From Candidatus Marinacidobacterales bacterium (GTDB taxonomy: Bacteria; Acidobacteriota; Vicinamibacteria; Marinacidobacterales; DATDRI01), in the NCBI GenBank assembly GCA_965219415.1, contig CBDCNP010000002.1, positions 4,864,001-4,928,000 on the forward strand: a stretch of DNA of 64,000 nt, in the 5' to 3' direction. Under the pieces are notes generated by a model, which saw only the letters and a list, made by a program, of their open reading frames with translations, ran no database searches and was not told the DNA's origin. This document shows, piece by piece, positions 591-53,720 of the stretch; within the stretch, counting starts at the first letter, position 1, and the number at the start of each line of letters is the position of its first letter. The position numbers were made by a program, and so were the translations under genes.

Positions 591-737
591 CGTCCTGTGC
601 CAAAACTCGGCCCTTTTGAAATAGACCACAAATCAGCAGCTTAGACGCTCTTGGAATCCGCGCAGAATCCAGGGTATTTCGCGCCGCAGGGCTGACTTCC
701 GACCCATGGGCTGGCGGATGAATAAATAGAAGGCACA
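591..737. mobile_element. 147-bp hybrid-ended MITE (end A CGTCCTGTGCCAAAACTCGG; end B ...GGATGAATAAATAGAAGGCACA)
   Basis: Near-identical reverse-complement copies at 15624-15770 and 15774-15921. End B is the left terminus of the integrase-core element at 50439. Confidence 0.85.
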
Positions 738-1153
738 CGCATGAGTATTTTGACCTCACGGGTGGATCGGCAGCTGCCGCCGCGAGCTCCTTGAGCACGT
801 CGTGGTTCTCGGTGCATGTCATCTCATCCGGCTCGTGCGAGCTTACATCAGCTACTATCACGAGGACCGTTGCCACTTGGGACTGAACAAGGATACACCG
901 AGCTTGAGAGCGGTCACGCACCGACCGTCTCCTACGGCGAAAGTCGTCGCACTGCCGCGAGTCGGTGGACTGCACCATCGATACGAGTGGCGAGAGGCGG
1001 CCTGAGTCAGCTTGGTCGCTCGCGTTACTCGGCTGGTCGCCGAGAAGTTCGTCCTCAGCACTTTTCCTCGCGCGCTGACCACGCTCTCCAGCATGTGCTC
1101 GAGGGCGCTCCGGGCCCTAGAGTCCAGTCCCGGATTAATAATGATGATGGACA
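738..1153 (+). mobile_element. F-type end (738-760) fused to the 3' fragment of integrase-core element X
   Basis: 761-1153 matches ~42673-43064 (…GGLHHRYEWREAA*, terminus ATTAATAATGATGATGGACA). Confidence 0.85.
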
Positions 1154-1363
1154 GCCGCCATAGGGTTCACGTACCAAGTCGAGTAGCCTTAGCACCGGCG
1201 AAGTTGGGTCGAGCCAGTCGTCGAAACGGTCGGGAGCGATGATTGCGGGCTGTCGATGGTGAATGTCGGCAAGCTCTGGAGAGGCCGTCGTCGTGATGAT
1301 GGTGAAGGATTCGAGGGAGTTGTTGCCCTTGCCCTGACCTTACCGTCCGGCTGCGCGCTCGAA
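1154..1363 (-). pseudogene. Internal fragment of an SOS response-associated peptidase (SRAP/YedK-like)
   Basis: Minus-strand translation ESFTIITTTASPELADIHHRQPAIIAPDRFDDWLDP resembles the SRAP TIIT..IHxRxP motif. Bounded by element ends on both sides. Confidence 0.6.
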
Positions 1364-1486
1364 GGTGCTTCCGCAGTCAAGTGTTGGTGGCCGCCGGGTA
1401 ACCTGTTCGTGTGCTAGAGTTACGCCTGATTTCGAGAGGCGTGGTTTTTCGTCGATGCCGACTGGGCCGAGTTTTGGCACAGGACG
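1364..1486. mobile_element. IS1-type left-end remnant joined to an A-type end
   Basis: Starts GGTGCTTCCGCAGTCAAGTGTTGG (compare 48359) and ends GAGTTTTGGCACAGGACG. Confidence 0.75.
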
Positions 1487-1543
1487 GGGTATGATGCAGC
1501 AACTCCTCACCGGCCGAGTGCGGCTGGTTCAATCGGAGTAGAC

Positions 1544-2026
1544 ATGGCGGTCACCTACCTGGACCAAGAAGTCGAGTCGTTGGTACAGGAGCGCAAACCC
1601 CTGCCCGCCGATTGGCATAGCCGGATTCGCCTGAAATCCAAGCGCGGACATCAAGAACAGCAACTGGATCTGACGGGTGAGGCTGGGAGCGAATTCCGCC
1701 TTATCCTCAGACAAAACAAGATCAATTTGCTCGATTTCTCAATCATCCTGGCTGTTCGAGCTCCCCAGTCGAATCAGATTTTTCGCCTCCGGCGCTACAA
1801 CGGCAGGAGCCATCAACACACCAACCACATCGAAGACGTGACGTTCTACGACTTTCACATTCACGTCGCAACGGAGCAGTATCAAGAGATCGGAACGCGA
1901 GAGGATGCTTACGCGGAGCCGACTGAGCGTTACGGAGACTTCCAGGGCGCCCTTCGCTGTCTGATCGAAGACGCGAATCTCGCTGTCCCGCCCGATCCGC
2001 AGATCGGCCTTTTCGAGGAGGTGTAA
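1544..2026 (+). CDS. Hypothetical protein, DUF6978-like (His-rich H-x-N...H-I-H motif)
   Basis: 160 aa, RBS GGAG upstream, motif RRYNGRSHQHTNHIE...FHIH; 3 bp from the next gene. Confidence 0.7.
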   Translation: MAVTYLDQEVESLVQERKPLPADWHSRIRLKSKRGHQEQQLDLTGEAGSEFRLILRQNKINLLDFSIILAVRAPQSNQIFRLRRYNGRSHQHTNHIEDVTFYDFHIHVATEQYQEIGTREDAYAEPTERYGDFQGALRCLIEDANLAVPPDPQIGLFEEV

Positions 2027-2029
2027 GCG

Positions 2030-2806
2030 ATGTCCATCGAGACCATGGAGCGAGATTTTCACCAGAAGGTTTCGGCAAAGGTTCGGCTGGCAACCGAGGG
2101 TATGGAACGCTTTCGCGTGTTTACGCCGTTTCTGTTCGACGACGGCGACCACCTTGTCATTGTTCTGAAGAAGGAAGGAGCACGGTGGGTGCTGTCCGAT
2201 GAGGCACACACGTACATGCACCTCACTTATGACATCGATGAGAAGGATCTTCATGGCGGAACGCGCCAGAAGATCATCTCGAACGCGCTTTCCACATTCC
2301 GAATCGAGGACCGCGATGGCGAGTTAGTGCTCGACGTGCCGGACGAGCGTTACGGTGACGCACTGTTTTCCTTTGTGCAGGCGCTGCTCAAGATCTCCGA
2401 CGTGTCGTACCTGTCGCGGGAACGGGTTCGGTCCACTTTCATGGACGATTTTCGGACGCTGTTGAGTGAAGCTGTCCCAGAAGAGCGCAGGAGCTTCGAC
2501 TGGAGCCATCCCGAACATGACCCCCGTGGGATGTACACCGTGGATTGCCGAATCAACGGCGTGTCCCGACCGCTTTTTGTTCACGCTCTTACCGGCGACG
2601 GCGGGACCCGCGATGCCACGATCGCGCTGCTTCAGTTCGAGAAGTGGGGGATTCGGTTCCGTTCACTGGCCATCTTCGAGGATCAGGAGTCGATCAATCG
2701 CAAGGTGTTGGCGCGCCTGAGCGACGTTTGCGAGAAGCAGTTCTCAAGCCTCACCGCAAACCGCGAGAGGATCGTGCACTTCCTGAATGAGAGCATCTCA
2801 GTATGA
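2030..2806 (+). CDS. DUF1828/DUF1829-like protein
   Basis: 258 aa, RBS GAGGAGG, N-terminal VFTPFLFDDGDHLVIVL...LSDEAHT typical of DUF1828; possible nuclease-like C-terminus (YTVDCRIN). Confidence 0.75.
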   Translation: MSIETMERDFHQKVSAKVRLATEGMERFRVFTPFLFDDGDHLVIVLKKEGARWVLSDEAHTYMHLTYDIDEKDLHGGTRQKIISNALSTFRIEDRDGELVLDVPDERYGDALFSFVQALLKISDVSYLSRERVRSTFMDDFRTLLSEAVPEERRSFDWSHPEHDPRGMYTVDCRINGVSRPLFVHALTGDGGTRDATIALLQFEKWGIRFRSLAIFEDQESINRKVLARLSDVCEKQFSSLTANRERIVHFLNESISV

Positions 2807-3002
2807 AATGGCGGAAGCACCGCACAGGACGACGTCGTCTACCATCGTCACGAGAGGAATCATCAAGGCAAGGAGAATCTGCTGCTGTTCCCAGCCAACG
2901 ACCAGTTACCTCAGTCCGACCGCAAGGTACGCTCCCGTGAACGGCTTGGCGGGTTGCTACGTTTCTACCGTTGGGAAGCCGCATGAGTAGTTTGACCTCA
3001 CG
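2807..3002 (+). mobile_element. IS1-type TIR remnant (2807-2821) plus 3' end of a third integrase-core element (Z)
   Basis: AATGGCGGAAGCACC, then a frame encoding HRERNHQGKENLLLFP...RERLGGLLRFYRWEAA* and terminus TTTGACCTCACG. Confidence 0.7.
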
Positions 3003-4277: not shown

Positions 4278-5044
4278 GGTGCTTCCGCAATCGAGTGTTG
4301 GTGGCTGCCGCGTAACCCGCTCGTGTGCTAGAGTTTGAGCCTGATTTCGAGAGACGCAGTTCTTTCGGCGATACGGGTTGGGCTGACCACACGGTGCGTG
4401 ACGTTCAGGGACACGTCCTGTCCAAAAACACAAACGCGTTGCCAAGCCCTTGATGGTTGCACTCTCCATCATAATGATAGATGAACTCGGCGCCGGCCCG
4501 GCGCGGGTCTTAGAGTTCGTTTGTATTTTTGGACACGACGGGCTTCCCGATGGTAGAAACGTAGCAACCCGCCAAGCCATTCACGGGAGCGCACCTTGCG
4601 CTCGGACTGAGGTAACTACTCGTTGCGCAGGAGCAACTCCTCGTCCACGGACCCTGAGATGTGGCTCACCATGGTATTCCAGTCCATCGCGACCCATTCC
4701 GCTGAACTGGGATACGTATCCGACCGCGATGGCGGATTCAAGCGATCTTTGGAAAGATGCAAACTGTTGACCCGCTGGGCGTTCGAATATTTTGACCAGA
4801 CGCGGTCACGCACCGACCGTCTCCTACGGCGAAAGTCGTTGCACTGCCGCGAGTCGGTGGATTGCACCATCGATACGAGTGGCGAGAGGCAGCCTGAGTC
4901 AGCTTGGTCGCTCGCGTTACTCGGCTGGTCGCCGAGAAGTTCGTCCTCAGCACCTTCCCTCGCGCGCTGACCACGCTCTCCAGCATGTGCTTGAGGGCAG
5001 TCCGGGCCTAGAGTCCAGTCCCGGACAAATAATGATGATGGACA
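4278..5044. mobile_element. Stack of element remnants: IS1-type left end (4278-4413), C+C MITE (4414-4540), internally deleted element Z (4541-4802, minus), element X 3' end (4803-5044)
   Basis: Each segment matches other copies in the window. The Z remnant encodes the N-terminus MDWNTMVSHISGSVDEELLLRNE* joined to its 3' tail. Confidence 0.8.
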
Positions 5045-6861: not shown

Positions 6862-6881
6862 CCGCGTTGTCCGCGAGTGGC

Positions 6882-7103
6882 TGTGCCTTCTATTTATTTA
6901 TCCGCGCGCACCAAACTTGAATAATCTCCTGTCTGCCAGCACCATGCCGGCATGATTTCGTCGTTGGTTCCCGCTCTCATCTCCGCCTTCAAGGCTCGTC
7001 GCGAGCTGGCTCTCGAGAATGTCGCTCTTCGGCAGCAGCTCGCCGTCCTCCGCCGTTCCGTGAAACGGCCACGGCTCTCGAATGTCGACCGCGTGTTTTG
7101 GGT
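6882..7103 (+). mobile_element. 5' fragment of integrase-core element Y, cut by element X
   Basis: Matches 50439-50660 (end B plus MISSLVPALISAFKARRELALEN...). Confidence 0.85.
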
Positions 7104-8370
7104 TGTCCATCATCATTATTAATTCGGGACCGCCCTCGAGCACATGCTGGAGCGCGTGGTCAGCGCGCGAGGGAAGGTGCTGAGGACGAACTTCTCGGCG
7201 ACCAGCCGAGTAACGCGAGCGACCAAGCTGACTCAGGCTGCCTCTCGCCACTCGTATCGATGGTGCAGTCCACCGACTCGCGGCAGTACGACGACTTTCG
7301 CCGTATGAGACGGTCGGTGCGTGACCGCTCTCAAGCTCGGTGTGTCCTTGTTCAGCCCCAAGTGGCAACGGTCCTCGTGATAGTAGCTGATGTAAGCTCG
7401 CACGAGCCGGATGAGATGACATGCGCCGAGAACCACGACGTGCTCAAAGAGCTCGCGACGGCAGCTGCCGACCCACCGCTCCGCGGTTCCGTTTTGCCAT
7501 GGGCTGCGAAACGAAGTGCGAACGGGTTTTGTGCCCGTTGCCTTGATGAACTCGATGACCGCAGCGTTAAAGATGAAGTCGCGATCGAAGATGAGATATT
7601 TCGGAGCGGTGTCGTAGGGAAACGCCTCACGCAGTTGCTGAATAACCCAAGCAGACGTCGGGTGGAACGTGGCGTTGAAGTGAACGATGTGCCGACGGCC
7701 GTGCTCGATGACAAAGAAGCCGTACAGCAGCCGGAGCGAAGCGGTGGGCACGGTGAACAGATCCATGGCGGCGATATCGTCTTTATGGTTGCGCAAGAAA
7801 GCCATCCATCGCTTCAGCTGGTCGGGCTCCGCAGGATGCCGCGGTAGGTATCGCGACACCGTAATCTCGGAGATGATGAAACCGAGCTTGGTGAGCTCAG
7901 CATGGATGCGTGGCGCCCCCCAGCCGTCTTGCGCCATCGTGCGGACGAGGCGGCGAATCTCGGCATCAATCCGAGGCCGACCGGGATGGCGGCGCTGCGA
8001 GATCTTTGCCCAGTACCGTCGGAATCGGTCGCGATGCCAACGGGCCACGGTGTCCGCGTGGACGATGAGCAGGCGGCTCGCCCACACGGGCCACGAACCT
8101 CGAAGAGCAACCCAGAAAGCCCGTTCCGTGTCTTCGAGTGGTGGGCGTGGGCGCTCTTTCTTCAGCGCCGTCACTTGCTGCCGCAAAGCGACGTTCTCCA
8201 ACACCAGGTCGGCGCGGCGCCGACACATCGCCCGAATGACACGGACGCCAAGTGAGACGAGGAAGACAACAACGTCGAGCATAGCGGTGGAGTTTCGCCG
8301 TCTTCGGCCCGGAATTCAAGCGGAGCGTAAGCCCTTGATTTCGTGGGCGGAGCAGTTTTGACGATGCACA
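7104..8370 (-). mobile_element. Integrase-core (rve/DDE, IS481-like) element X, copy 1
   Basis: TGT..ACA termini with imperfect IRs (TGTGCATCGTCAAAACT / TGTCCATCATCATTATT); near-identical to 41779-43064. Confidence 0.9.
7233..8282 (-). CDS. Integrase-core-domain DDE transposase
   Basis: 349 aa; WGAPRIHAEL HTH region; DDE triad in AMDLFTV / IFDRDFIF / NGTAERWVGSCRRE. Confidence 0.9.
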   Translation of the reverse strand: MLDVVVFLVSLGVRVIRAMCRRRADLVLENVALRQQVTALKKERPRPPLEDTERAFWVALRGSWPVWASRLLIVHADTVARWHRDRFRRYWAKISQRRHPGRPRIDAEIRRLVRTMAQDGWGAPRIHAELTKLGFIISEITVSRYLPRHPAEPDQLKRWMAFLRNHKDDIAAMDLFTVPTASLRLLYGFFVIEHGRRHIVHFNATFHPTSAWVIQQLREAFPYDTAPKYLIFDRDFIFNAAVIEFIKATGTKPVRTSFRSPWQNGTAERWVGSCRRELFEHVVVLGACHLIRLVRAYISYYHEDRCHLGLNKDTPSLRAVTHRPSHTAKVVVLPRVGGLHHRYEWREAA

Positions 8371-8523
8371 GTCTCTGAACGTCAGGCACCGTGTGGTCAG
8401 CCCAGCCCGCATCGCCGAAAGAACTGCGTCTCTCGAAATCAGGCTCAAACTCTAGCACACGAGCGGGTTACGTGGCAGCCACCAACACTTGATGGCGGAA
8501 GCACCCTTAATTGCGGAAGCACC
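8371..8523 (-). mobile_element. IS1-type left-end remnant with a tandem doubled TIR
   Basis: Reverse complement of 4278-4413; ends ...GATGGCGGAAGCACC followed directly by CTTAATTGCGGAAGCACC. Confidence 0.75.
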
Positions 8524-8672
8524 GCACTTTCGGGGTGTTGGACGTGGTAGACTCCTGCCCTCCAGAGGCCAAAGCGCCCAGTCCACCGCCAGGATAAACC
8601 AACGGAGACCAATTTTTGATGTCGGATCCGACCCACTCCCGGTTGTTCGTTGCGGGAGCTAAGGAGAGAACC

Positions 8673-11600
8673 ATGAGACAGGTAACGTATCGAGTGCCCC
8701 GAGGGGCCACGTTGTTGGTCGCTATAGTCCTTCTGGCAGTGTCGGGTGCCGCCGTGCCGGTGTTGCAGACGGCGCCGCAAGATTCACTTACCGGCCTTGA
8801 GGGGATCTTTTCGACGGGACCGGTCCTGCAGGATCGGAATGGCGATGAGTTGGTCGACTTCGTGGAGGCGGCCATCGTTTTGGGCGAGGCGCCGACGGCT
8901 CAGGAAGTCGCCGCTGCGGCCGATATCGCGGCTCGACTGGGCCACGAAACCATGGCCATGGACGTGCCGGTGGCTTCGGAGCCCGGGGCTGCCGCCACCG
9001 GGATCCTGATTGGTAACGGGGCCGTGGCACGGGCTGGCCTCCGAGCCACCGAGGCCGGGGTTCAGGGCCTTTCGCCCGGCGAAGGCGTGGTCCGGATGGT
9101 CTCTGGAAGCGGGCGCAGCTGGGTCGTGGTGGCGGGCGCCGACGATGCCGGCACCCGGGCGGCGGCCGACGCGTTCGCACAACGCTTGCCCCATGTGTGG
9201 GATCCAAAGGGCCCGGAGCTGAAGGATGTGGCTCAGGACGTGGAGGCGTTTCTGGCCGAGCAAGGGGTTCGAGCGCAGAGCTCCGAGGTGGCCGGTCTTC
9301 GGGTGAAAGCCGGCGAGCAGGGTTTTCGGCTTCTGGTGGTGGAGGTGGAGCTGGGCTCGGCTTCTGACCTCAACCGCGCTCGCGGAGCGCTGGAGGAGCT
9401 GGTCCGGTCGCGTCGTGGCGTGGCAAGCGGCGCCGAGGCACCTCTCTCCTACCCGGGTGCCCACATGCTTCGTGTCGCGCTGTCGGCACAGGGGGCCGAC
9501 GCGGCGGAGGTGGAAGTGCCAAAGGTGGATTCTGTCCCCAAGGAGGGGCCCATCCCTCCACGGCCGGGCTCGAAGGCAAAGCAACAGCTGGATCTTTCTA
9601 GTGTCTACACCAACGAAGGCTTCTTCGGGGATTCGGACGAGAACCTGATCCCCGACCGGATCGACGTGCTCCTCAGTCCCTCGGGCCAAGGGATCGAGGG
9701 GACGGTGGATCTTGCCGCCCGCATCGGGCTGGAGTCTGCTGGCGTTCAGATCCCCGTGGCCCAGGTGCCGGAGGCCATCGAGGATCCGGAAGCGGCGCCG
9801 ACGCTGGTGCTCATCGGGACCGACCATCCCCTGGTGCAGCAACTGGTGCAAGAGGGGAAGCTGCAGCTACCTCCCCTGGAGGCCGGCCAGGGTCTCATCC
9901 AAGTGGTGCCCAAGGCATTCGGGGATAAGAGTGCGGTCGTGGTAACCGGGGGTGACGGGGCCGGTGTGGCCCGAGCGCTCCGGCAAGTTGCCGAGCGGTT
10001 CCCCAACGTCTGGGAGCGCGGCAAGGACCGCACCACCATCGAGGGCGTCGAGGAGAACGTGTACCGGTTCCTTTCGGGTCGCTCCCCCGCCGGGCAGGCG
10101 GCCACCGCCCTGTACAAGCTGGATAGCCTTGTGCAGGAGCTGTCGGGAAAGGACGTGGAGTCCGCACACGTTCTGGTTTCGGTGGAGAAGCCGGCGGACG
10201 GACTGGAGGGAATCGTGCGGCAACATGCCCAAGCCCTGGGTGCCGGCTCCCTCGAGGTGACCGTCGATAACCGGGACGTAGAGAACGCCGCGATCATCTA
10301 CGAGGAGGAGTTCGAGGTTGCCTCGGAGGTTGCGGAGTTCTGGGGGATCTTTCGTTCGGAGGTTGTGCCGGAAGTCCGGAGTGGGCAGCCGGTGGTGGTG
10401 GAGTTGCGACTGAGCGAGCCGCCGGAAGTCCGGACGGAGATCGAACGAAAGGCAATGGCGGAGCTGATCACCGCGGGTGCGGCGGAATCGGGCACCCAGG
10501 TGAGAGTGCTCTCGGCCTACAAACAAGGCTACAGCTGGCTGCACGACGTAGTGGGCCCGGAGCTCAAGGGCCAGAAGGTGGGTAAGCTAACCATCCGCTT
10601 TGCTGAGAACGGCCCGCCGCCGGAGTGGAAGCAGCAGGCCATGTACGCCAAGAGTCGCTGGCTGATGGAGACCTACCCCATCGACGAGGTGCTGGCTCGG
10701 GAGCTGGGCCTCGAGCTGGATCAGATCGGCTTCGAGATGATGCCGATCGGTGCACCGACCTACGAGGCCATCGCCACTGCCCCCGACGGCAGCGAGCTGC
10801 TCCGGCAAACCTTCGAGCCCAAGTACGTGTTGAGGTCGTATTTCGATCCCCTTCCCGATTACGAGAAGGTCCGGGTGACCACCGGATGGCTTACCGCCCG
10901 GGTGGGTGGCGATACGGTAGTGGACCGGAGGATCATCACCGACGTCGAGCGCTTCTGGGACCACTACCAGGAAAAGATCCTGCAAAGGGTCTACGACTAC
11001 GTGATGGAGCTTACCGAGGGCAACCCCCGGTCCGAGGACGCGCCCCATTTCGGGAAAATCGTCGTGGAGTTGACCCTCAGCGAGCCCAATTACTTGGTGG
11101 GCGTCGACAGGGAGATCATCGCTTCCATGGAGTCCGTCCACGAGGATCTATACTTCACCACCCTGCATTTCTTCGATGTGTTGGGCCAATACGCCCGGGG
11201 CGAAGGCCTGGACTTTCCGGGCCGGGTGATCCCCATTATGCGTCCCAAGGGAGACGGCAAGGCGGGGCGGGCGAAGATCACTTTCACCGGCTTCGCCTCC
11301 CCACGTCCGGCCGTGGTGGTGAAGTATACCGAGCGGGGAGGCGGGGAAGGCAAGGTGCGCCGGGACATCCGGCGAGTAGATCTGGAGCGCCCCCAGGCCC
11401 TGGCGGCAACCGTGCGGGACGGCCGGGACGGGATCGAGCGCCTGGAGCTGCGGGTGAAGGTCGACACCGAGATGGACCAGCGGGCCGAGCTCCTGAAGCG
11501 AGCCCGTGTCGAGGAAGTGGACCGGCGGATCATGTCCGCCCAGCAAGTCACCGCCCTGGTGGATAACCTCTCCCGGCTGCAGCAGGCAGGTCTGTACCGT

Positions 11601-38030: not shown

Positions 38031-38044
38031 CCGGAAGGACGACG

Positions 38045-44425: not shown

Positions 44426-46204
44426 TTAGGGCGAATACTCGAAGACGCGAACCCACCGCCGTTGTTGCCAAACCGGAGAGAAGTGTCGGTCTCTCTCAAG
44501 AAATTTGAAGTCGACATCCATCGTCTCATTGCCGTCCAGCCGCCCCCACGCGAAATGCGTGAGACCCCAGCGAGTGGCAGCAGTGCTTATCTTGGTCTTA
44601 CTCTTGGACTCTACGAACCAAAACTGCGCCTGCAAACGTTCCGCGAGGTCGGTGGGCGGGATGAGGGCACCTTCAACCAAGAGAACACGTCGACCGCTCA
44701 GCGCGGGAATCCAAGGTGAGTAACTGGGGCCGGTGACGAATACCGCATCCGAATCCGTCTCCGCTTTGACCCATGAGATCAGAGGACCGAATTGGGGTGC
44801 GATCGGTCGGATGCTTTCGACGTAGACAGGATCCATCAACATTGGCTGCCACCAATATGGAAAACACCACGGGAGAGATAACGCGACAAGAGCAGCGATG
44901 CCTACAACGTGAAGAGGGGAACTCCCTAGATACTTGCCCGGGAGCTCAACTCTGTCAAGCCTTTGTGCGAGCCAAATCAGTACGTCGTGGGCGCCGAGCG
45001 CACCTGCGATGGCTAGGGACAAGTTCAGAAGCGAGCCGGCCACTTGTATTCCAATGACCGAGCTTGCCGGAGGGGAAAGACCGGCACCGGTCCATGCGAT
45101 CAAGCCGGTCATCACCAAGCTACTAAAGAGAAGCTCTGCTCGTTTGCCGCTTCGCAGCATACGAATCAAAGAGATAAGAGCGAGGTAAAACAAAAGGCCC
45201 TTGTCCAGGGTGAGAGCTAGCAATTGATTGAAGGTGAAATACCACGTGCCCGCACTTGCCGGAACCAACGAGGGCTCGAAACGTGAAACCCACAGCGGGA
45301 AAAAGGCTATCGCAACCGCAAGGGACACCCCCGCGGCTCTTTTTGCGCGATGTCTCTTCCGTGAAACCAATAGCCAAACGATCACTGAGACTACCGCGAA
45401 CCCGGCAAGTCGAGCTTCCAGTCCTCCCAGCAAGCCCAAAACGACACCGGCGGCGAGAAAAGACGAAAGACGACGCGCCTCGCCTAAGAGCCGAAGCCAA
45501 ATCATCAACAACCCCAGCGCAAACGCCAAGTGCGGCTGCTGTCCGAAGACCTCCGGCCAGAGTGGTCCCGGACTTCTGAGAAAGCTAAGTCGTGTCGAGC
45601 TGAGAAACAAAGCAAAGAAAACCGAGAGTCCTCTCACGAGTCCTTGGGAATCGCCGGAAAGGGCTTTTGTCGACCAGAAGATCGTTCCCGCTAGAAACAC
45701 CATGCCGACCACCGCCAAATGCTCGTATATGAACAAAAGCCGGTCGGCGTCGAAACCGGAGGCGACCGCCAGCACCATACTCCAGAGGGGATAAGCATTC
45801 GGTTGTTTCACCATCCATCCGTCTGCCGTGGTCCCTCTCGCCGCCGTCACCATGGAGCTGGCGAGCGCGGCCAATCCGCGTTCCCCTTCAACCAGCCCGT
45901 AGGGACGGCCGAGCGGAACTTCCAGCAAGACGATCCAAGCGAAGCAGCCGAGCAGCACGGACCCGCAAAAGAGCCACCATCGACTCGGCCAGCGGACCAG
46001 CGCGACCGCCCAAGTTAGGAAGGCAGCGGAGAAAACGTATCGAAAAGTGATGAAGTAGTCGGCGAACGTTATCGCTGGACCGCCAGGCCACAGCTCGACG
46101 AGGTCGCTTAACATCGGCTCGTTAAGCGTAACATGGTGGAATTCGGATTGACCGGCGAACAGATCAGCACAGATAGAGGGAATTCTCCTGGAGGTGACGC
46201 GCAT
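44426..46204 (-). CDS. Polytopic membrane protein, possible GT-C glycosyltransferase (start may be 46114)
   Basis: Many TM segments plus a soluble C-terminal domain; paralogous to 46472-48220 (FPYWW.P..MD, W.PAL.GR). Confidence 0.65.
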   Translation of the reverse strand: MRVTSRRIPSICADLFAGQSEFHHVTLNEPMLSDLVELWPGGPAITFADYFITFRYVFSAAFLTWAVALVRWPSRWWLFCGSVLLGCFAWIVLLEVPLGRPYGLVEGERGLAALASSMVTAARGTTADGWMVKQPNAYPLWSMVLAVASGFDADRLLFIYEHLAVVGMVFLAGTIFWSTKALSGDSQGLVRGLSVFFALFLSSTRLSFLRSPGPLWPEVFGQQPHLAFALGLLMIWLRLLGEARRLSSFLAAGVVLGLLGGLEARLAGFAVVSVIVWLLVSRKRHRAKRAAGVSLAVAIAFFPLWVSRFEPSLVPASAGTWYFTFNQLLALTLDKGLLFYLALISLIRMLRSGKRAELLFSSLVMTGLIAWTGAGLSPPASSVIGIQVAGSLLNLSLAIAGALGAHDVLIWLAQRLDRVELPGKYLGSSPLHVVGIAALVALSLPWCFPYWWQPMLMDPVYVESIRPIAPQFGPLISWVKAETDSDAVFVTGPSYSPWIPALSGRRVLLVEGALIPPTDLAERLQAQFWFVESKSKTKISTAATRWGLTHFAWGRLDGNETMDVDFKFLERDRHFSPVWQQRRWVRVFEYSP

Positions 46205-46471
46205 TTGGGAACGAAGTAAAAACTTGGAGAAACCACTTCGCCCACTTCATTGACGACACCTCTGCGGTCTAGTACAGTGGTGATAGACTGACGACGTGCG
46301 GGAGCACGGTGGATGCGCGACGCTTTAGACACTGTCACACTACCGCGACCCTCTTATGAATATAGTTTGGGCCTAGCAGCACGGCACAGGGAGTCGGTTG
46401 AACAATCCCTCGGATCGCACTCGGAGCCATTGAGTTCATTCGTAGACTCTGTGAAGCCCTAGGGTTTCCTT

Positions 46472-48220
46472 ATGCCTGAACAGCATTTAGTGTCTTTCTT
46501 TGCGCTGACGCGCATTACCTATCTTGTTCTCGCATTTCTCTTCGTGCTTGCCCTGGCTCGTTTGAAGAGTCCTTGGGTCGGGTTGGTCGGGGTTGCGCTT
46601 CTTTTCTTTATCGGCTGGCTAGCCTCAAACTATCCATTGGAGCGGTTGTATGGTTTGTTCCTCCCTGGTGACCGATTAAGGAATCTCTCCTGGACTATGA
46701 CGGCGGCGGCCGGTAACTCTCTTTTGTCTACCGGCATCATTGGCCAACAAATTAATTTTGATCCAGCGTGGGCCAGCCTTGTAGCTGCCTTGTCCTTTGG
46801 AAGTCCTGACCGTGTTCTTTCGCTCTATCCGTACCTGTCGGCCGGTGTGATGCTGTCGTTGATGCTATCGCTATTCTACCACTTCAAACCCCGCACCTCT
46901 AGCTACCCAGCCACCGAAGCTGGCGATTGGTCATACCTCCGGCCAGTGTCAGTGGTTTTTTTCGTCTCCCTACTCGCCACCGCTCCGCTCGACTATCTCG
47001 GACCTTATCGGGGCTATTGGACGAAAATGTTTCTTCTAAAGCCCAACCATGCTCTTGCTCTGGTTCCGCTAACCTTTGCGGTTGGACAGTTAGCGAAAAC
47101 GACACGACGGAGCATTCTGTTGGGTGGCCTCTTGCTCGGTCTGGTCGGCTGGGCGTTTATTGTCCACTGGGCGCTCATCTGCTTCGGTCTATTCGTATAT
47201 CTTCTCGTGATCTTGAATAAAAGTCGACCAAAGCTCGGAAGGGTCGGAAGGGAGGGACTGCGAATAGCCGCCATTGTTATGCTGAGTTCGGCGGTCGTTG
47301 CTCCTTGGTTCATGCGGCTCGCAACTGACTTTCCTCGAGCAGTTAGTTTGAGCTCAGCGTCTGGGCCGGAGATCGGTCGCGTAGCAGTTGGGGAGCACTT
47401 ATACCAAGGAAGTAACTCTCTCCTTTTTTTAGCGACTTTGGATCAAGGACTGGTCTTCTACCTTGGGGTCATCGGGGTAATCGCTTGGTTTCGAAGCCGT
47501 GAGCGCCGCGATCACTTTTGGGCCTCATTGGTGATAGGCTCCTACGGGGTCATGCTGGGAAACTACCTGCTTTATCTCATGGGCAGGGCACGGGGTGACG
47601 AACTTTACTATTTCCTATTGTTCGGGTTAGCTCGACCTGCGCATGAGGGCAGATTCCTACAGGCATGGGACGAACTTTACTATTTCACATTGTTCGTGTT
47701 GTCGGTGGCAGCGGGAAACGGTTTCTGGCAGTGTCTCATTTCCGCCAGACGCTGGTTGCCTAATGAGCGTATCGTGGCGGTCGCTTTTGTCGGACTGATA
47801 CCACTTGGTTTTCCATATTGGTGGAATCCAATGATCATGGATGGCCATTTCCGGCGCACGCTGGAGCCCATTCCGAAATCGGTCGTCGAAATGACCGATT
47901 GGATTCGAGCTGAGACCAGCGGGCTTGACGTTTTCGCAGCTTCCGCGGACCCAACGCATTGGTTTCCCGCGCTAACCGGCCGTCAAACACTCCAGGAGAA
48001 CGAGAGCGTCAGAGTTCTCCGGGGTATTCTAGCCGGGGAGATCCGACCCGATCAGGACGGTCGGCTACCCCACCGGTTATCTTACGTTGCGATGGATCGA
48101 CAGCTAGCACGGTCCGTCAACATTCATCCTGACGATCTCCAAGATCGACCGGGTTTCGAGCTTGCCACGCGAGTCGGCCAAATTAGATTATACCGTTTGG
48201 TTCCGGACCAACTGGAGTAA
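46472..48220 (+). CDS. Polytopic membrane protein, possible GT-C glycosyltransferase
   Basis: 582 aa; same architecture; first loop contains GDRLRN; internal DELYYF duplication. Confidence 0.65.
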   Translation: MPEQHLVSFFALTRITYLVLAFLFVLALARLKSPWVGLVGVALLFFIGWLASNYPLERLYGLFLPGDRLRNLSWTMTAAAGNSLLSTGIIGQQINFDPAWASLVAALSFGSPDRVLSLYPYLSAGVMLSLMLSLFYHFKPRTSSYPATEAGDWSYLRPVSVVFFVSLLATAPLDYLGPYRGYWTKMFLLKPNHALALVPLTFAVGQLAKTTRRSILLGGLLLGLVGWAFIVHWALICFGLFVYLLVILNKSRPKLGRVGREGLRIAAIVMLSSAVVAPWFMRLATDFPRAVSLSSASGPEIGRVAVGEHLYQGSNSLLFLATLDQGLVFYLGVIGVIAWFRSRERRDHFWASLVIGSYGVMLGNYLLYLMGRARGDELYYFLLFGLARPAHEGRFLQAWDELYYFTLFVLSVAAGNGFWQCLISARRWLPNERIVAVAFVGLIPLGFPYWWNPMIMDGHFRRTLEPIPKSVVEMTDWIRAETSGLDVFAASADPTHWFPALTGRQTLQENESVRVLRGILAGEIRPDQDGRLPHRLSYVAMDRQLARSVNIHPDDLQDRPGFELATRVGQIRLYRLVPDQLE

Positions 48221-48358: not shown

Positions 48359-49557
48359 GGTGCTTCCGCAATTAAGTGTTGCGGCCAGCCCCTAACTGGT
48401 CTGCGTGCTAGAGTTTGGACCAGAATTCCGAAGACACAGTTCTTTCATCGTCAGGGCCGAGCCAAAGTGAAGAATAGCAGATGTCTCAATCTCGCATGTC
48501 CGTTGCGGGGCAAAGTCAGTTCCGGAAACATCGTTCGCCACGGATTCTACAGAACCAGGTCCGGGAAACGCCGTCGATACCGGTGCGGCGAGTGCGGAAA
48601 GACGTTCTCCTCGACGAAAGGCACGCCCTACTACCGTCTCCAACATCGAAGAGCTACTTTCGATGGGGTCATCGCTCTCAGAGTCGAGGGTGTCAGCATT
48701 TCCGCGATTTCCCGGATCAAAGGGATTGCCTGGAACACCGTCGCCCGCTGGCTCGAGAAGGCAGCCCAAGTGTGTCGTCGATTCAATCACAGAAGGATCG
48801 CTGGCTTCGCTGCCGAAGAGCTTCAAGCCGACGAGATTCGCACGTTCGCGGGCAACAAGAAGACACCGAGTTGGGTCTTCGTTACAATCGAAGTCTGGTC
48901 TCGGCTCTGGCCATCGACGGTGACGGGAAGGCGAAGCTACCGGAACACTCACGCTCTGTTTCGCGACCTTTCGAGACGGATGAATTTCGAGCGTCTTCCC
49001 TTGCTCGTCACGGATGGATTCGAATTCTACCAGAAGGTCATCCGTCGCTTCTTCGGTCCAGCGTGTCTCTACGGTCAGGTCCTAAAAACGCGCAGGAACG
49101 ATCGCATCATCAAGGTCGAACGCAGAGCGCTGCACGGAGCCGCGTGGCGGTTCGAAGACGCGCTCAATAACTCCGAGGACTCCTCGACATTGAACACCTC
49201 GTTCATCGAGCGGTTGAATCTGACCATCCGGCAAAGCTCGGCATACCTTTCGAGACGAACACTTTCCCACGCTCGCTCGACAGAGAGGCTCGATGAGCAC
49301 CTGGAGTTGCTCCGTTGCTATTACAACTTCGTCCGACCGCACGGAGCTCTGAAGTTCGGACGTGAGATCCGAACTCCGGCTATGCAGGCTGGTCTGACCA
49401 CGCGACGGCTCACCTTTCGAGACATCTTCTTGGCGATGACGATTCCTTTGTGGTCGCGGATCGAGGTTTTCCTGCTCAGTAGGGCGCGCAACCCGGTCTC
49501 TTCCGAACCTGTACCACTGCCCGCAGCCGCGTAGCAACACTTGATGGCGGAAGCACC
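48359..49557 (+). mobile_element. IS1-family element, copy 2; intact 355-aa transposase 48467-49534
   Basis: GGT-starting TIRs; Zn ribbon (C..C...RYRCGECGKTF), HTH, DDE ELQADE / VTDG / NTSFIERLN; no target duplication. Confidence 0.92.
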
Positions 49558-50263
49558 GGATCTTCCACCCTTGCCGTCGCCGCCTCCAGCATCGCCCTTC
49601 GGGGAATTCTTCAGCATCAATCACAATCGGGTCGCCGTTTACAAAGAGAAGCGCGCTCGACTCAATGCTGTCCTCGAAGAGCACGGCTTCCGCTATTTTA
49701 GGGGCGGACGAATTATCCCAAAGGATGAGATTCCGCGGGATCCGATGCGAAAGACCGCGAATACATCCGCACAACTCCACAGCCCATCGAGCGTTGAAGA
49801 ACTACTACAGACGCTACTTAAAGGTTTGCCGCGAGCGATGTACCCCCTTGGGCATCGACGTAGAGGCGCAAAATCTTTGACCTTCGAGTCTGAGTATGAC
49901 ATTCAGGATTTGATCCATTCTCAGCTTCGCCCATGGGTCTCCGATATTCGACCTGAGGAATTCACTCCTAGCTACGCAGGATCATCAACTCGGATGGATT
50001 TCTTGTTGCCTGACCACAAGCTTGTCATCGAGATCAAGCGAGTCCGTGACAAGACACACGCATCGAAAGTAGGCGATGAACTCATAGTAGACATAGAGCA
50101 CTATCGCCAGCACCAGTACTGCGACCGGCTGTGGTGTGCGGTTTATGACCCGGATCTGCTAATCAAGAACCCAGCGGGTATGATCTCGGATCTTGAAGGT
50201 AAGCGGTCTACACCTGGTGGGTCTGTTTCTGTCCACGTGCTGGTGATCCCAAGGGTAGCCTGA
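49544..50263 (+). CDS. PD-(D/E)xK nuclease, DpnII/MboI-REase-like; 5'-truncated, with the start supplied by the IS1 TIR
   Basis: EYDIQDL..IRPEEFTPSYAGSSTRMDFLL..VIEIK..DELIVDIEHY..YDP. Confidence 0.75.
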   Translation: MAEAPDLPPLPSPPPASPFGEFFSINHNRVAVYKEKRARLNAVLEEHGFRYFRGGRIIPKDEIPRDPMRKTANTSAQLHSPSSVEELLQTLLKGLPRAMYPLGHRRRGAKSLTFESEYDIQDLIHSQLRPWVSDIRPEEFTPSYAGSSTRMDFLLPDHKLVIEIKRVRDKTHASKVGDELIVDIEHYRQHQYCDRLWCAVYDPDLLIKNPAGMISDLEGKRSTPGGSVSVHVLVIPRVA

Positions 50264-50438: not shown

Positions 50439-51693
50439 TGTGCCTTCTATTTATTTATCTGCGCGCACCAAACTTGATTAATCTCCGGTCTGCCAGCACC
50501 ATGCCGGCATGATTTCGTCGTTGGTTCCCGCTCTCATCTCCGCCTTCAAGGCTCGTCGCGAGCTGGCTCTCGAGAATGTCGCTCTTCGGCAGCAGCTCGC
50601 CGTCCTCCGCCGTTCCGTGAAACGGCCACGGCTCTCGAATGTCGACCGCGTGTTTTGGGTGCTGTTGCGCAGAATCTGGACTGACTGGGAGAGCGTCCAC
50701 GTCATCGTGAAACCTGAGACGGTCATCCGCTGGCACCGTTGTGGGTTCAGACGATATTGGACTTGGAAGAGCCGACGGCGTAGGCCCGGACGACCAGGCG
50801 TCGCTCCCCGAAATACGTGAGCTGATACGGAACATGAGCAGGGCCAACCCTCTCTGGGGAGCTCCCCGCGTGCATGGCGAGCTGGCGAAGCTAGGCATCT
50901 CCATTTCCCAGGCCGCCGTCTCCAAGTATAGGGTTCGCCATCGCACCCCACCGTCCCATACTTGGCGGAGCTTTCTCGATAATCATGCAAACGACTTGGT
51001 GTCGCTCGACTTTTTCACTTTGCCGACTGCAACCTTCAGAGTTCTGTTCGTCTTCATCGTCCTTCGCCACGACCGTCGCCGTATCGTTCATTTCAATGTC
51101 ACCGAACATCCTTCTGCCGAGTGGACGGCGCAGCAAATGGTCGATGCTTTTCCATGGGACACGGCGCCTCGGTACTTGGTACGGGATCGAGACCAGACCT
51201 ACGGAGCGTACTTCGATACTCGCGTCGACGGTCTCGGGATCGAGCAGGTCCTTACCGCACCGCGCTCCCCGTGGCAGAATCCATTTGTCGAAAGGATGAT
51301 CGGCTCCATTCGACGTGAGTGTCTCGACCACGTGATCGTCCTTGATGAGCGGCACCTGAAGCGAATCCTACGCGAATACGTCGACTACTATCATTCGTGC
51401 CGGACTCATTTGTCGCTTGAGAAGGACGCGCCCGAGCCTCGCCGGGTAGAGTCACCGGCGATGGGCAAAGTGAGAGCCATTCCAAAGGTCGGTGGTCTCC
51501 TTCATTATTACACTCGACGCGCTGCTTGAGTCCGATCCGCTCGGAACGACTGCCGGACTTCGCACCAGCTTACACCTCTACCCCTGAGTAGAGCCGACGC
51601 CGGCTCTTAAAACGTCCTACATGAAGACGACCAAAGCATTCCGGTTGCAGGAAGTTCGCCAATCTCATACAGCTCGAGTTTATGGAAGGGACA
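50439..51693 (+). mobile_element. Integrase-core element Y, full length; transposase 50509-51529 frameshifted near 50808
   Basis: Ends TGTGCCTTCTATTTATT / TGTCCCTTCCATAAACT; NPLWGAPRVHGEL, LDFFTL, RDRD, NPFVERMIGSIRRE. Confidence 0.9.
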
Positions 51694-52065: not shown

Positions 52066-52089
52066 GGGTACGGTGAACCAGGAGGGTTT

Positions 52090-52431
52090 ATGGTGAAAAA
52101 GATTGGAGGGGAAGCGAGAGCCTTGAGAGAGTACAGGTCGGCGCGAATGGCCGACCGGGTACACGCGATCTATGTGCTTGAGGACGATAACGAGAATGCG
52201 GTGTTCGACGCAGAGCTCATCAGCGGCATTAGTAGTGAGCCACCGTGGTATGACTGGAAAATCAAAGCGACCGTTGTCAGCGGCGGGAAGTTACTCGAGG
52301 AGAACAACGGTAAGTTCGTGCTGAGATTCGCGCATGATTCGTACACGGCCCAGCAATTGCTGAACGGAAAGGCTCGTGAATTTGAGGCGCTTGGAATCAA
52401 GGTTCGGTTGGTCGATAAAGAGAGGGTTTGA
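52090..52431 (+). CDS. Hypothetical protein (113 aa)
   Basis: RBS GGAGG before ATG 52090. Confidence 0.6.
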   Translation: MVKKIGGEARALREYRSARMADRVHAIYVLEDDNENAVFDAELISGISSEPPWYDWKIKATVVSGGKLLEENNGKFVLRFAHDSYTAQQLLNGKAREFEALGIKVRLVDKERV

Positions 52432-52585
52432 CAAAGTAGTTTCCTACCTGTGTCTTCTATTTGTTCATCCGCGTGACCTGCTCCCCGAAAACTGGTTCAA
52501 ATACGATCCCGACTTGACGCCGCTGGACCTCCAACGAGGAAATGTTGAATGCTACCGAACGTGATCAGCGACATCACGAAGAGCC

Positions 52586-52677
52586 TGTGCCTTCTATTTA
52601 TTCATCCGCGCGCCTCGAACTTGATTAGCCTCCGGTCTGTCGGCACCATGCCGGCATTCGTATTTTTTAACACGACG
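52586..52677. mobile_element. 92-bp B+C hybrid MITE (a lone degenerate B end is also at 52449)
   Basis: TGTGCCTTCTATTTATTCATCCGC ... TATTTTTTAACACGACG. Confidence 0.65.
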
Positions 52678-52783
52678 CAGTACCATCGATTCGATCAGAC
52701 ACAGCAGCTGACGGCAAAACGTCCTGATACGATTGCCCATGCAGGCCATGACCCGAGTATTTCTGCACAACAAGGCCAAACCC

Positions 52784-53440
52784 ATGACTGAAACGTTCAA
52801 AAAACAACTGGAGGCAGTTATTGCCGAATATGAGTCGGCGCTTTCACAATCAGTCCATAATGATGCGTCCGACGTGCTCTCCCGAACCCAAGTTACGGAT
52901 TTACAAACGCGTTGTATTGCGGCGATTGAGAGAATTGTAGGTCGAAACTCTCCTTACTTTAGACAGATAAAGGCAATTGGTACGGGAAAAACCCATATAT
53001 GGAATCAGGTGGCGAGCCTGATAGGCGTTGCAAAGGCATTGCTTTCCGACATCCAGAATGACTACCTAAGTTCCTTTGAAGAAATCTTACACGGTGATAT
53101 GTTCAGCGATTTCTTGGAGATGGCCGTTCATCTCGTAGAAAAAGGATACAAAGATGCAGCCGCCGTTTTGGCAGGTAGCACCCTGGAAGTTCACATTAGG
53201 AAACTATGCGACAAGTATGGTGTGACAACTACATCGGGCAAAAATACGAAGAATGCCGACACGTTAAATGCCGATCTTGTAAAGGCGGGTGCGTATACAA
53301 AACTTGATCAGAAAAACGTAACAGCCTGGCTTGGATTACGCAACAATGCGGCTCACGGGAATTATTCCGAATACACCATGGATCAGGTAAAACTTTTCAT
53401 TGACAGCATACGGAACTTCATCACCCGATATCCTGCGTGA
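52784..53440 (+). CDS. HEPN-like (DUF4145-type) protein
   Basis: AAAVLAGSTLEVHIRKL and the R-x4-H motif RNNAAH; markedly AT-rich. Confidence 0.75.
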   Translation: MTETFKKQLEAVIAEYESALSQSVHNDASDVLSRTQVTDLQTRCIAAIERIVGRNSPYFRQIKAIGTGKTHIWNQVASLIGVAKALLSDIQNDYLSSFEEILHGDMFSDFLEMAVHLVEKGYKDAAAVLAGSTLEVHIRKLCDKYGVTTTSGKNTKNADTLNADLVKAGAYTKLDQKNVTAWLGLRNNAAHGNYSEYTMDQVKLFIDSIRNFITRYPA

Positions 53441-53472
53441 TATTGCTGAGATTTAATCCATGAAGATCATCT

Positions 53473-53639
53473 GGTGCTTCCGCCATTAAGTGTTGATGAG
53501 ATGACGCTAAGACTTTACGGTGCATTAAATTACAGCCAAAATAGCGCCGCTGACCTTTGCTGCGCGCTAAATGGAGCTTTAAGCGCCTTTTTTGCAAAGG
53601 GGTGCGTACACAGTACCAACAGCGAACAGCGCAAGCACC
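53473..53639. mobile_element. 167-bp IS1-type MITE, copy 4, followed by a transposase N-terminal remnant
   Basis: Homologous to 13112-13277; downstream VNRQQQDVIDYLRKENRVLR. Confidence 0.85.
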
Positions 53640-53720
53640 GGGTCAACCGCCAGCAGCAGGATGTGATTGACTACCTTCGAAAGGAAAACCGTGTGCTCCG
53701 AGCCGGGCTTCGGGGCAATC

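Follow-up and report, generated by a model that had tools for sequence, protein, structure and literature searches.

Introduction

Members of the IS481 family of insertion sequences (IS) are about 1-1.4 kb long, carry a single open reading frame (ORF) of about 350 aa, have termini that start with TGT and produce target duplications of 4-15 bp. IS1-family elements have terminal inverted repeats (IRs) that start with GGTG and duplicate 8-9 bp of the target, and IS1 is the classical maker of adjacent deletions. Resistance mosaics of the IS26/IS6 type involve one IS family in direct repeat, which moves units made of an IS plus a segment, and IS110 elements of the IS1111/IS4321 type target the inverted repeats of other transposons (Tn21-type). 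In this study we compare these systems with a patchwork of mobile-element ends and gene segments in the DNA of a Candidatus Marinacidobacterales bacterium. The window, i.e., the whole stretch of DNA that was analyzed, is 64,000 nt long and corresponds to positions 4864001-4928000 of contig C3 of genome assembly G000; the region studied is window positions 591-53720 (53,130 nt), and coordinates given below without a contig name are window positions.

Moves that leave no target duplication have been described. In the excerpts of Ngan et al. (2024) used here, missing duplications are attributed to adjacent deletions and recombination (PMC11708052), and IS481 and IS5 are seen to move without duplication at large rearrangements, with IS150 also among the cases. 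One IS481 copy in Pseudomonas fluorescens lacks a duplication and lies at the center of a 60-kb duplication, for which the authors, in the same excerpts, suggested insertion into a break (PMC11708052). Variable regions rich in IS and in miniature inverted-repeat transposable elements (MITEs) have been reported, as far as the consulted portions of the two articles go, from Sulfolobus islandicus (PMC3718332) and Amoebophilus asiaticus (PMC3196728). The literature already covers IS-rich plastic regions, adjacent deletions, IS26-type mosaics and IR-targeting IS110 elements; in the main texts of the literature searched, we found no description of Marinacidobacterales mobile elements or of a system such as the one described here.

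The first-pass annotation, made from the sequence alone, had proposed a 54-kb hotspot in which pairs of ends capture genes in the manner of composite transposons. We find that the region is instead a typical slice of a large plastic compartment, which takes in C3 4.1-5.69 Mb, smaller islands and a 0.28-Mb contig. Our best reading is that the array is a by-product of erosion and accretion and not a dedicated capture system. That it is produced by one-sided, non-reciprocal, transposase-made joins, which erode and accrete DNA in a dispensable and exchange-prone compartment, is a view that we hold with about as much confidence as doubt.

A plastic compartment of the genome

The G000 assembly (8.05 Mb) comprises the contigs C3, C1 and C2 of 5.69, 2.07 and 0.28 Mb, respectively, all with 59% GC and zero N, and the closest relatives of one of the window transposases are in metagenome-assembled genomes of Candidatus Marinacidobacterales (Acidobacteriota). 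Copy number per base was determined by BLAST of the window against its own genome. Within the region, 37.5% of the bases have at least five copies and 71.7% have at least one other copy, compared with 0.0% and 5.8%, respectively, in the neighboring 53721-64000. Blocks with at least five copies (36) alternate with low-copy blocks of at least 100 nt (28), and self-comparison of the window yields 20 direct-repeat families and 61 inverted pairs. True termini were told apart from truncations by determining, for each match boundary, whether genomic copies stay alike past the edge, and six terminus motif types were then counted genome-wide. There are 46 occurrences inside the window, and GC content per kb spans 0.50-0.68. 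The earlier description of a patchwork of unrelated segments, differing in base composition and joined at element termini, is thus borne out.

The proposed 54-kb limit is not. The 1,397 termini in the genome are distributed very unevenly, with 833 in C3 4.1-5.69 Mb, 469 in islands of C3 1.8-4.1 Mb and 77 on C2, and they are almost missing from C3 0-1.8 Mb (16) and from C1 (2). In the zone C3 4.1-5.69 Mb, the median is 37 termini per 64 kb compared with 46 in the window, and 52 of the 192 64-kb windows of this zone equal or exceed the count of our window. A 20-mer analysis gives a repeat content above chance but agrees that there is no local hotspot: 25.5% of the 20-mers in the region have at least five copies against a mean of 11.3%, which places it at rank 124 of 877 54-kb windows. 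Since a similar terminus density is common across about 1.6 Mb and is found in satellite islands too, positions 591 and 53720 are not the limits of a hotspot.

The compartment is saturated with the elements named below as X, D/J, IS-A and the IS1-like element, and with MITEs, including MITEs with two unlike ends. An IS3 family behaves differently, with five of its 36 copies on C1 and four on C2. Because this young family has copies there, C1 either belongs to the same genome or exchanges DNA with it. The confinement concerns the families that lack target duplications and not mobile DNA as such. In G001, a genome of the same genus assembled as one 6.3-Mb contig, the high-identity element copies among the matches listed are at 6.218-6.33 Mb and 0-22 kb. 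These copies form one cluster across the contig ends, so that confinement may be common to relatives.

Element families

Gene families were assigned with Pfam, NCBIfam and PADLOC profiles (68 window ORFs scanned). Element X is IS481/IS3-like, 1286 nt long, with the ends TGTGC/TGTCC and a 349-aa ORF encoding an rve_3 transposase. The D/J element (1255 nt) is related to it, with transposases that are 50% identical, and IS-A, seen elsewhere in the genome, is about 1430 nt long with a 356-aa ORF (31% protein identity to X) and IRs of about 70 nt. All three have the rve_3 domain and fit the IS481 type in ORF size, length and TGT ends; on the NCBIfam IS481 model, X (80.3 bits) and D/J (84 bits) are below the cut-off of 224, and X scores 84.3 bits on the IS3 model (cut-off 160). 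The IS1-like element is about 1200 nt long with a single ORF of 355-373 aa that scores 58.5 and 84.6 bits on the NCBIfam IS1 model, below the cut-off of 100. Its ends begin with GGTGCTTCCGCC on both sides, matching the GGTG start of IS1, but none of its 31 copies has the 8-9 bp duplication of that family.

Further families are assigned by score, among them IS3 at 340.1 bits (NCBIfam cut-off 160) and IS110, with a DEDD transposase, at 302.6 bits (cut-off 140). These two bear out the earlier claim that the elements land in each other. Other repeats, mostly A-type MITEs, harbor 23 of the 36 IS3 copies. All 27 full copies of the IS110 element directly follow an 18-nt IS1 tip, and 25 of them are then followed by the rest of IS1, i.e., the IS110 element targets the end of another element site-specifically.

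The MITEs are 105-185 nt long, have 18-149 full copies each and have ends that match the IS1-like, IS-A and D/J elements; MITEs C, B and G are grouped with the IS1-like element. Several families have two unlike ends, including A+D MITEs, with 69 full copies at 150 nt and 24 at 185 nt, and IS1+A MITEs of 105-130 nt, with 36 full copies in one family and 18 in another. With 18-69 full copies each, these hybrids of ends from different transposase families have multiplied. The flanks of the unlike-end families represented at 588-737, 1364-1490, 18159-18254 and 36223-36407 are random.

Target duplications

Target duplications were searched for at all full-length copies, allowing a boundary shift of up to 4 nt and lengths of 2-12 bp, and were checked by eye. 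IS3 was the only family that gave a signal. Duplications of at least 7 bp were detected in none of 148 copies of MITE C, 48 of X, 31 of the IS1-like element and 69 of an A+D MITE, so that X lacks the duplication of an IS481 element, and no MITE family with two unlike ends has one. A match of 3-6 bp at the exact ends of X was seen in 4 of 48 copies, with about one expected by chance, and none of 13 X-like copies in other genomes has a duplication. The IS3 family served as positive control. Duplications of 4-5 bp were recovered in 23 of 36 IS3 copies, and comparison with empty paralogous sites gave a gap of -4 or -5 in 13 of 17 cases; the method is therefore valid. Within the window, the absence of duplications noted in the first-pass annotation holds for both IS1-like copies, the IS5 copy (there called IS903-like), X copy 2 and the MITEs, although it missed the exceptions, namely the two IS3 copies, of which copy 2 has a 3-4 bp duplication. 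What does not hold is the use of this absence as a local sign of composite transposition, as it is genome-wide in these families and extends to all 13 X-like copies elsewhere.

Age offers one explanation. Median pairwise divergence is 0.2% for IS3, 2.3% for X and 2.8% for the IS1-like element, from which X and IS1 would be about ten times older than IS3. As 36% of IS3 duplications have been lost at 0.2%, near-total loss is expected in families ten times older.

If a duplication had been separated by later exchange, its partner could be at a distant end, as had been suggested. No cross-copy duplication partners were found for X, and IS1 ends show a weak excess of 7-8 bp cross-copy matches (20 vs. 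6 and 19 vs. 2 in the control). When flanks were joined to look for empty sites in the genome, clean sites were obtained for IS3 only, and the few spanning matches for MITE C, X and IS1 were mostly one-sided similarities. For a 19-kb stretch at C3 652-671 kb that surrounds a small island, no empty site was obtained in five relatives; the synteny of G001 ends about 480 nt before the first element of the island and never resumes.

Junctions, flanks and lost halves

The two flanks of a single X copy map hundreds of kb or Mb apart at 96-100% identity (often 98-100%). The paralogs of low-copy flanks are mostly free of element ends: end-free and end-bearing paralogs number 32 and 0 for X, 98 and 25 for A (plus 4 with both), 77 and 17 for IS1 (plus 6) and 53 and 9 for D (plus 2). 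This is contrary to the earlier suggestion that cargo moves together with its flanking ends. We also followed up the proposal to search for the missing halves of interrupted sequences. At 259 junctions, a low-copy flank has a paralog that is free of the element. The lost side is single-copy in 121 of these and adjoins another terminus in 38 (for X, in 1 of 36); as a rule, the other half of the interrupted sequence is missing from the genome. Since the lost side is often single-copy and seldom beside a terminus, the joints are non-reciprocal, which agrees with the adjacent-deletion-like events that had been postulated and argues against both homologous shuffling as the main cause and transposition of units made of an end plus cargo.

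Homologous recombination between dispersed copies, including copies on DNA incoming from relatives, could shuffle flanks. Copy numbers are high, elements in other genera and families are 95-99% identical, cargo is 98.6-99.9% identical to genomes G008 and G018, the 38 lost sides beside another terminus would suit such exchange, and so would two identical inverted IS3 copies 567 nt apart. Reciprocal exchange, however, keeps both halves, yet 121 of 259 lost sides are single-copy and only one of 36 X junctions has its lost side beside a terminus. With 105-185 nt and 85-95% identity, MITEs make poor substrates, and still none of the 148 MITE C copies has a duplication, and IS3, similar in length and copy number, still has duplications in 23 of 36 copies. 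Recombination also leaves the site motif described below unexplained, and we consider it very unlikely as the source of the joints.

The composite transposons or translocatable units of the first-pass annotation, which would build a cassette-like array, can be weighed on the same flanks. Many cargo blocks are bounded by termini, a minority of flank paralogs does carry the same end (A 25 plus 4, IS1 17 plus 6, D 9 plus 2), a symporter block has the same IS1-tip edge in G000, G001 and G014 with a varying other edge, and the hybrid-end MITEs (69, 36 and 18 full copies) indicate that unlike ends can move together. Against this, X has no end in any of its 32 flank paralogs and the element-free class dominates all families; the cargo paralogs examined have no flanking elements in common with the window; the ends that bound a block are usually of different families and often fragments; and the pattern is not special to the region. 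A composite transposon would have two copies of one IS around a cargo that moves as a unit, bracketed by a single duplication, and no such bracketing duplication was found. No integron-like order was seen, and the paralog of each traceable cargo block is at a different locus. On balance, composite transposition is very unlikely.

The sites themselves have a signature. In uninterrupted paralogs, sites of X, D and J have G-S-C in the part that is kept and R-C-Y(T) in the part that is lost, C being present at +2 in 77-85%, and A-end sites read ACCC on the kept and nGT on the lost side. In about one third of A-end cases, the match to the paralog extends for 5-8 bases into what is nominally the A end. 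Its outer 4-8 bases follow paralog variants and thus derive from the target (18149-18158 and 38956-38964 in the window; 227 junctions genome-wide). A-end joints therefore occur at sites that resemble the end itself, and both window cases with intact references show this pattern (9/10 and 7/8 bases). This preference for particular sites speaks for an enzyme that chooses its target.

Termini are intact to the first base in 98-100% of copies. The genome encodes Ku (290.9 bits, cut-off 150) and, adjacent to it, a ligase-domain protein of the LigD type of non-homologous end joining (243 bits, cut-off 227.75) at G000:C3:5249175-5250983, within the repeat-rich zone. End joining of nibbled ends by this pair was considered and is unlikely, as intact termini fit strand transfer better. 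With repeats allowed, collinear flank pairs were often found within 6 kb. In a strict set of 34 copies with both flanks low-copy they were gone, apart from six segmental duplicates, and they were not used as evidence. A few single cases resemble replacement of a 51-89 nt stretch of the target, and their flanks are repeat-rich. The tandem duplication-IS-duplication layout of the published IS481 case was not seen, and paralogs are scattered by hundreds of kb.

Mobile elements of the region

The elements are listed below; where no strand is given, none was assigned.

588..737: 150-nt MITE with unlike ends (A-type at 588, D-type at 737); flanks unconserved among copies; 69 full copies
761..1154: X right-end fragment, terminus 1154; left edge 761 is a truncation (flank conserved 0.99)
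1364..1490: hybrid MITE, IS1-type end 1364, A-type end 1490; 36 full copies
4802..5044: second X right-end fragment, terminus 5044
6881..7103: first 223 nt of a D/J-type IS, D terminus 6881, broken at 7103 by X
7104..8371, reverse: X copy 1, 349-aa rve_3 transposase, both termini, no duplication
8372..8505: MITE piece, IS1-type end 8505, cut by X at 8371/8372
13072..13277: 40-nt A-end piece (13072-13111) abutting 166-nt IS1-type MITE C (13112-13277)
15245..15336: A-type piece, terminus 15336
15624..15923: 150-nt A+D MITE, two copies in tandem
18159..18254: hybrid MITE G, A-type end fused to a receptor gene, IS1-type end 18254; 18 full copies
20236..21698, forward: 18-nt IS1 inverted-repeat tip, then an IS110-family element (20254-21698)
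21699..22882, reverse: IS1-like copy 1, 373-aa single ORF, IR interrupted by IS110
23828..23993: MITE C (more copies at 25435-25599 and 53473-53639)
26906..28162, forward: IS3 copy 1 within one A-type element (26815-26905 and 28163-28198), 7 bp of target missing
28199..28577: third X right-end fragment, terminus 28577
28731..29989, reverse: IS3 copy 2, simple insertion in an A end (28617-28730 and 29990-30003), 3-4 bp duplication
32799..33885, reverse: IS5-family element, no duplication (NCBIfam IS5 256.7 bits, cut-off 140)
35719..36222: right-end (J) fragment of a D/J-type IS, terminus 35719; 99% identical, inverted, to 51181-51693
36223..36407: 185-nt MITE, A end 36223, D end 36407; 24 full copies
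38965..39079: A-type piece, outer bases gene-derived (7/8 match the A consensus)
41779..43064, forward: X copy 2, full length (1286 nt), no duplication, between an alpha/beta hydrolase gene and unrelated DNA
43297..44379: debris, i.e., a right end of X up to 43568, then 739 nt of an IS110 element with IS1 tip (43569-44307) and 72 nt from inside IS1 (44308-44379)
48359..49557, forward: IS1-like copy 2, full length (1199 nt), no duplication
50439..51693, forward: D/J-type IS, 1255 nt, transposase 50% identical to that of X

The D/J piece at 6881-7103 is 98% identical to 50435-50660, and its other copies continue beyond 7103; the remainder of the A element at 13072-13111 is absent from the other side of MITE C. 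IS3 copies 1 and 2, 567 nt apart, are 100% identical and inverted, and the IS5-family element has 99% identical copies in G001-G003. ORF family scans of the window revealed no IS6-family transposase, no phage-integrase-type family was found among the 68 scanned ORFs (attC sites were not searched for), and Rfam and tRNA scans of the window gave no matches.

Truncated genes and cargo

The blocks between the elements carry the following genes and gene fragments.

1155..1363, reverse: SRAP gene fragment, cut on both sides (Pfam profile 143-194 of 214, E 7.7e-13)
1544..2806, forward: DUF6978 and DUF1828 genes, PADLOC candidate PDC-M24B
8537..12953, forward: 4.4-kb copy of an S-layer/M14-domain gene, 1432 aa, 95.2% identical to C3:1284473-1288889
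15337..15585: CRISPR array remnant, first repeat cut by an A end at 15336/15337
15925..18158, reverse: TonB-dependent receptor gene without its N-terminal part, 99.55% identical to C3:3065079-3067309
18509..20234, reverse: SNF-family symporter block, 99.8% identical to C3:4469239-4470964
30069..32798, reverse: MmeI-type IIG restriction-modification gene, paralogs of 96.5% and 87.5% identity elsewhere
34029..35652, reverse: PIN-domain gene, unknown ORF and Phd/YefM-like gene
36408..36827, reverse: PQQ-dehydrogenase fragment, cut at 36407/36408 (Pfam PQQ 291-413 of 595)
36829..38964, forward: metallo-beta-lactamase (MBL)-fold gene and truncated S9/PD40 gene, cut at 38964; 98.6% identical to G008
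39155..40672, forward: short-chain dehydrogenase/reductase (SDR) and methylpurine-DNA glycosylase genes
44426..48220: two ORFs of 592 and 582 aa, no family match
49558..50263, forward: C-terminal part of a DpnII/MboI-type (Aga helical restriction endonuclease, REase) gene (Pfam E 3.2e-40)
53721..64000, reverse: repeat-free DISARM-like genes, the set running off the window

The earlier statement that genes are cut exactly at element ends stands for seven of eight cases (SRAP, CRISPR, TonB, MmeI, PQQ, S9 and REase), with the TonB joint at 18158 instead of 18152 and the S9 joint at 38964 instead of 38961. The eighth, an HNH gene at 43065-43296, was not recovered, as no Pfam family at E<=0.01 was found in the four frames tried. 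The SRAP fragment is bounded by an X end (1154) and an IS1-type end (1364). The intact paralog of the TonB-dependent receptor is an 863-codon frame whose homology ends at 18158, and at this joint 9 of 10 bases match the A-end consensus. The MmeI gene is without about 22 N-terminal profile positions (N domain from 23) and its last codons, and it abuts the IS5 element at 32798/32799; the REase gene follows the IS1 end at 49557 and covers PADLOC profile positions 216-362 of 378 only. Three of the 71 CRISPR repeats of the genome are in the window and 68 are at C3 4.79-4.80 Mb, i.e., the main array is about 64-74 kb upstream of the window. The X copy at C3:4794653-4795929 has array-like sequence on its right flank.

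Two of these cases have an uninterrupted reference. One is the receptor gene; the other is provided by G008, a genome from another family in which the PQQ-dehydrogenase, MBL-fold and S9 genes continue uninterrupted at 98.6% identity. The PQQ fragment in the window is 98.6% identical to positions 6508-6927 of locus L081 of G008 and, compared with the intact gene there, 36408-36827 is inverted and 554 nt are lost. Between this fragment and the next block there is one extra base and no element (36827-36829). A second copy of the MBL/S9 block in the same genome, at C3:2645396, is 99-100% identical with both edges in common; it starts at the same base but there abuts an A end. Similarly, 39499-40741 is 99.9% identical over 1243 nt to a fragment in G018, also of another family, where the SDR/glycosylase fragment is the truncated one and its edges have no recognized element end. 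The symporter block is 96-99% identical in G001 and G014, with a common right edge. Identities of 95-99.9% between families are seen for cargo and elements at L081 (G008:C1:286000-302000) and L082 (G018:C1:1094000-1108000), and elements are 95-99% identical across genera and families of the order. Judged by sequence comparison, this near-identity points to recent exchange and to what may be intense gene flow in the community.

The cargo paralogs that were examined are at different loci, with no flanking elements in common with the window copy; that of the S-layer/M14 gene (C3:1284473-1288889) lies in the repeat-free part of the chromosome. Much of the cargo is defense-related, including the MmeI and REase genes, a GmrSD_C-domain protein, PIN/Phd, a HEPN-like protein, the CRISPR remnant and the PDC-M24B-like genes. 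The DISARM-like set beyond the region includes a DrmMI-like methylase (PADLOC E 5e-198), a DrmD/DpdE-like SNF2 helicase and a 1214-aa MZB-domain helicase. Three large ORFs (592 and 582 aa at 44426-48220 and 455 aa at 5494-6861) have no Pfam, NCBIfam or PADLOC match.

Origin of the joints

Under the reading we prefer, erosion and accretion by one-sided joins, the joints would be made one side at a time by transposase chemistry, either of the adjacent-deletion type or by joining to a break, and neither homologous exchange nor random breakage would be the joint-making route. Because the compartment would be dispensable, joining events could accumulate there. They would truncate genes at termini, strip duplications, stack elements end to end and create hybrid MITEs. 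The cargo would be passive DNA, consisting of duplicates from elsewhere in the genome and of fragments shared with co-occurring relatives.

Several observations weigh against this reading. No joining event was directly observed. Local deletion finds no support in the strict low-copy set, where, with a shuffled-pair control, none of the 34 copies has flanks that are collinear in one paralog with a gap beyond the element itself. No mirror-image of the site motif was found within 40 nt on the kept side, and this one-sidedness is contrary to concerted two-ended strand transfer, including the classical adjacent deletion. Among the youngest X copies (0-1 private substitutions), a 3-6 bp match is present in 2 of 15, near chance, compared with 18 of 30 for IS3; the lack of duplications in these copies and in 13 of 13 foreign X-like copies fits an intrinsic property better than erosion. 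Finally, G000 is a metagenome-assembled genome with estimates of 96.3% completeness and 8.45% contamination.

These points bear on a second explanation, that the IS481-like and IS1-like families never duplicate their target and that they move by single-end strand transfer or break insertion, resolved by replication. Such joining would attach an end to one side of a remote site, and it could also copy adjoining DNA and so leave dispersed, truncated duplicates beside ends, which would look like capture without composite transposons. The one-sided motif without a mirror partner and the universal absence of duplications, foreign X-like copies included, would both be expected. So would the flanks of one copy at different loci with 96-100% identity, the element-free flank paralogs (X 32 vs. 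0) and the 71.7% of the region that has another genomic copy, and the excerpted P. fluorescens case is a published IS481 move without duplication (PMC11708052). It would, however, require equally odd behavior of unrelated IS1-like and IS481-like transposases, the published tandem layout was not found here, the erosion clock calibrated with IS3 already predicts near-total loss in the older families, and joining of this kind was not directly observed. We regard this explanation as possible but doubtful. A broader proposal, to which we give still less credence, is that the whole DDE set (the three IS481/IS3-like elements, the IS1-like element and the unlike-end MITEs) normally moves by uncoupled single-end joining without duplication, with each end attached separately at a site of one-sided signature and adjoining DNA lost or copied. 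The elements would thereby be restricted to one self-reinforcing part of the chromosome, a transposon-built accretion zone that would keep shredding and re-stacking native and foreign genes and would be common to co-occurring acidobacterial lineages.

The contamination estimate also raises the question of an assembly artefact, i.e., switching between co-occurring genomes or loci at shared repeats. The genome is metagenome-assembled, other genomes of the order hold near-identical elements and some near-identical cargo, and public contigs over 26001-46000 do not bridge the joints, with some diverging at 36829, 38964 and 41778. Parts of 34000-42000 were present in 15 public runs, of which four were compared; their contigs are short, break at repeats and are in some cases G008-like. 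The compared contigs, however, derive from short reads of other samples in which G008-like organisms are present as well. An assembly into contigs of 5.69, 2.07 and 0.28 Mb despite 13% repeats probably implies long reads, and as the segments are 0.1-4 kb long, one such read should cross several joints. A long-read assembler cannot be misled by MITEs of 105-185 nt, and in the same compartment IS3 gives clean 4-5 bp duplications and exact empty sites. We therefore regard misassembly as the least probable of the explanations considered.

If the plain reading of erosion and accretion is true, the region is an extreme case of wear and re-stacking of dispensable DNA by IS and MITEs, with about one quarter of the chromosome a mosaic and the remainder clean. 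Gene calls in the compartment (defense genes, transporters, enzymes) are often fragments, which is a warning for their use. Compared with textbook IS, it is unusual that several DDE families lack duplications, here and in related genomes, that the junction motif is one-sided, that hybrid-end MITEs are abundant and that confinement is strict beside a freely spreading IS3. These features make it testable whether DDE transposases can join ends singly or into breaks (Ngan et al., 2024).

Comparison with known systems

One likeness is to the adjacent deletions and duplication-less moves in the excerpted cases of PMC11708052, with which our junctions share an intact terminus, no duplication, a gene cut at the end, non-reciprocal joints and involvement of the IS481 family. 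Unlike in those cases, as far as the excerpts describe them, the lack of duplications here is not occasional and affects essentially every copy (0/148, 0/48 and 0/31), the flanks come from dispersed loci and the motif is one-sided.

The IS26 mosaics resemble the region in having short unrelated cargo between IS ends, no duplications and genes truncated at ends. Here, however, the bounding ends are of mixed families and often fragments or MITEs, and the flank paralogs are mostly end-free. Integron arrays also have a row of unrelated, often defense-related genes between repeats, whereas the repeats here are transposon ends that belong to several families and point either way, many of the genes are fragments, and no promoter-oriented order was seen. 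The IS110 element is comparable to the IS1111/IS4321 type in occupying one fixed position of an inverted repeat (27/27), that of the IS1-like element; this target is not of the Tn21 type, and it accounts for one component only and not for the whole patchwork.

At the scale of the genome, the region resembles the plastic regions of S. islandicus and A. asiaticus, from which, in the portions of the reports consulted (PMC3718332; PMC3196728), a syntenic core set against a long, strain-specific and element-rich region and massive IS enrichment are known. It differs from them, to the extent that those portions describe them, in the extreme partition, with 2 of 1,397 termini in a 2.07-Mb contig, and in the exemption of IS3, which has 5 of its 36 copies on that same contig.

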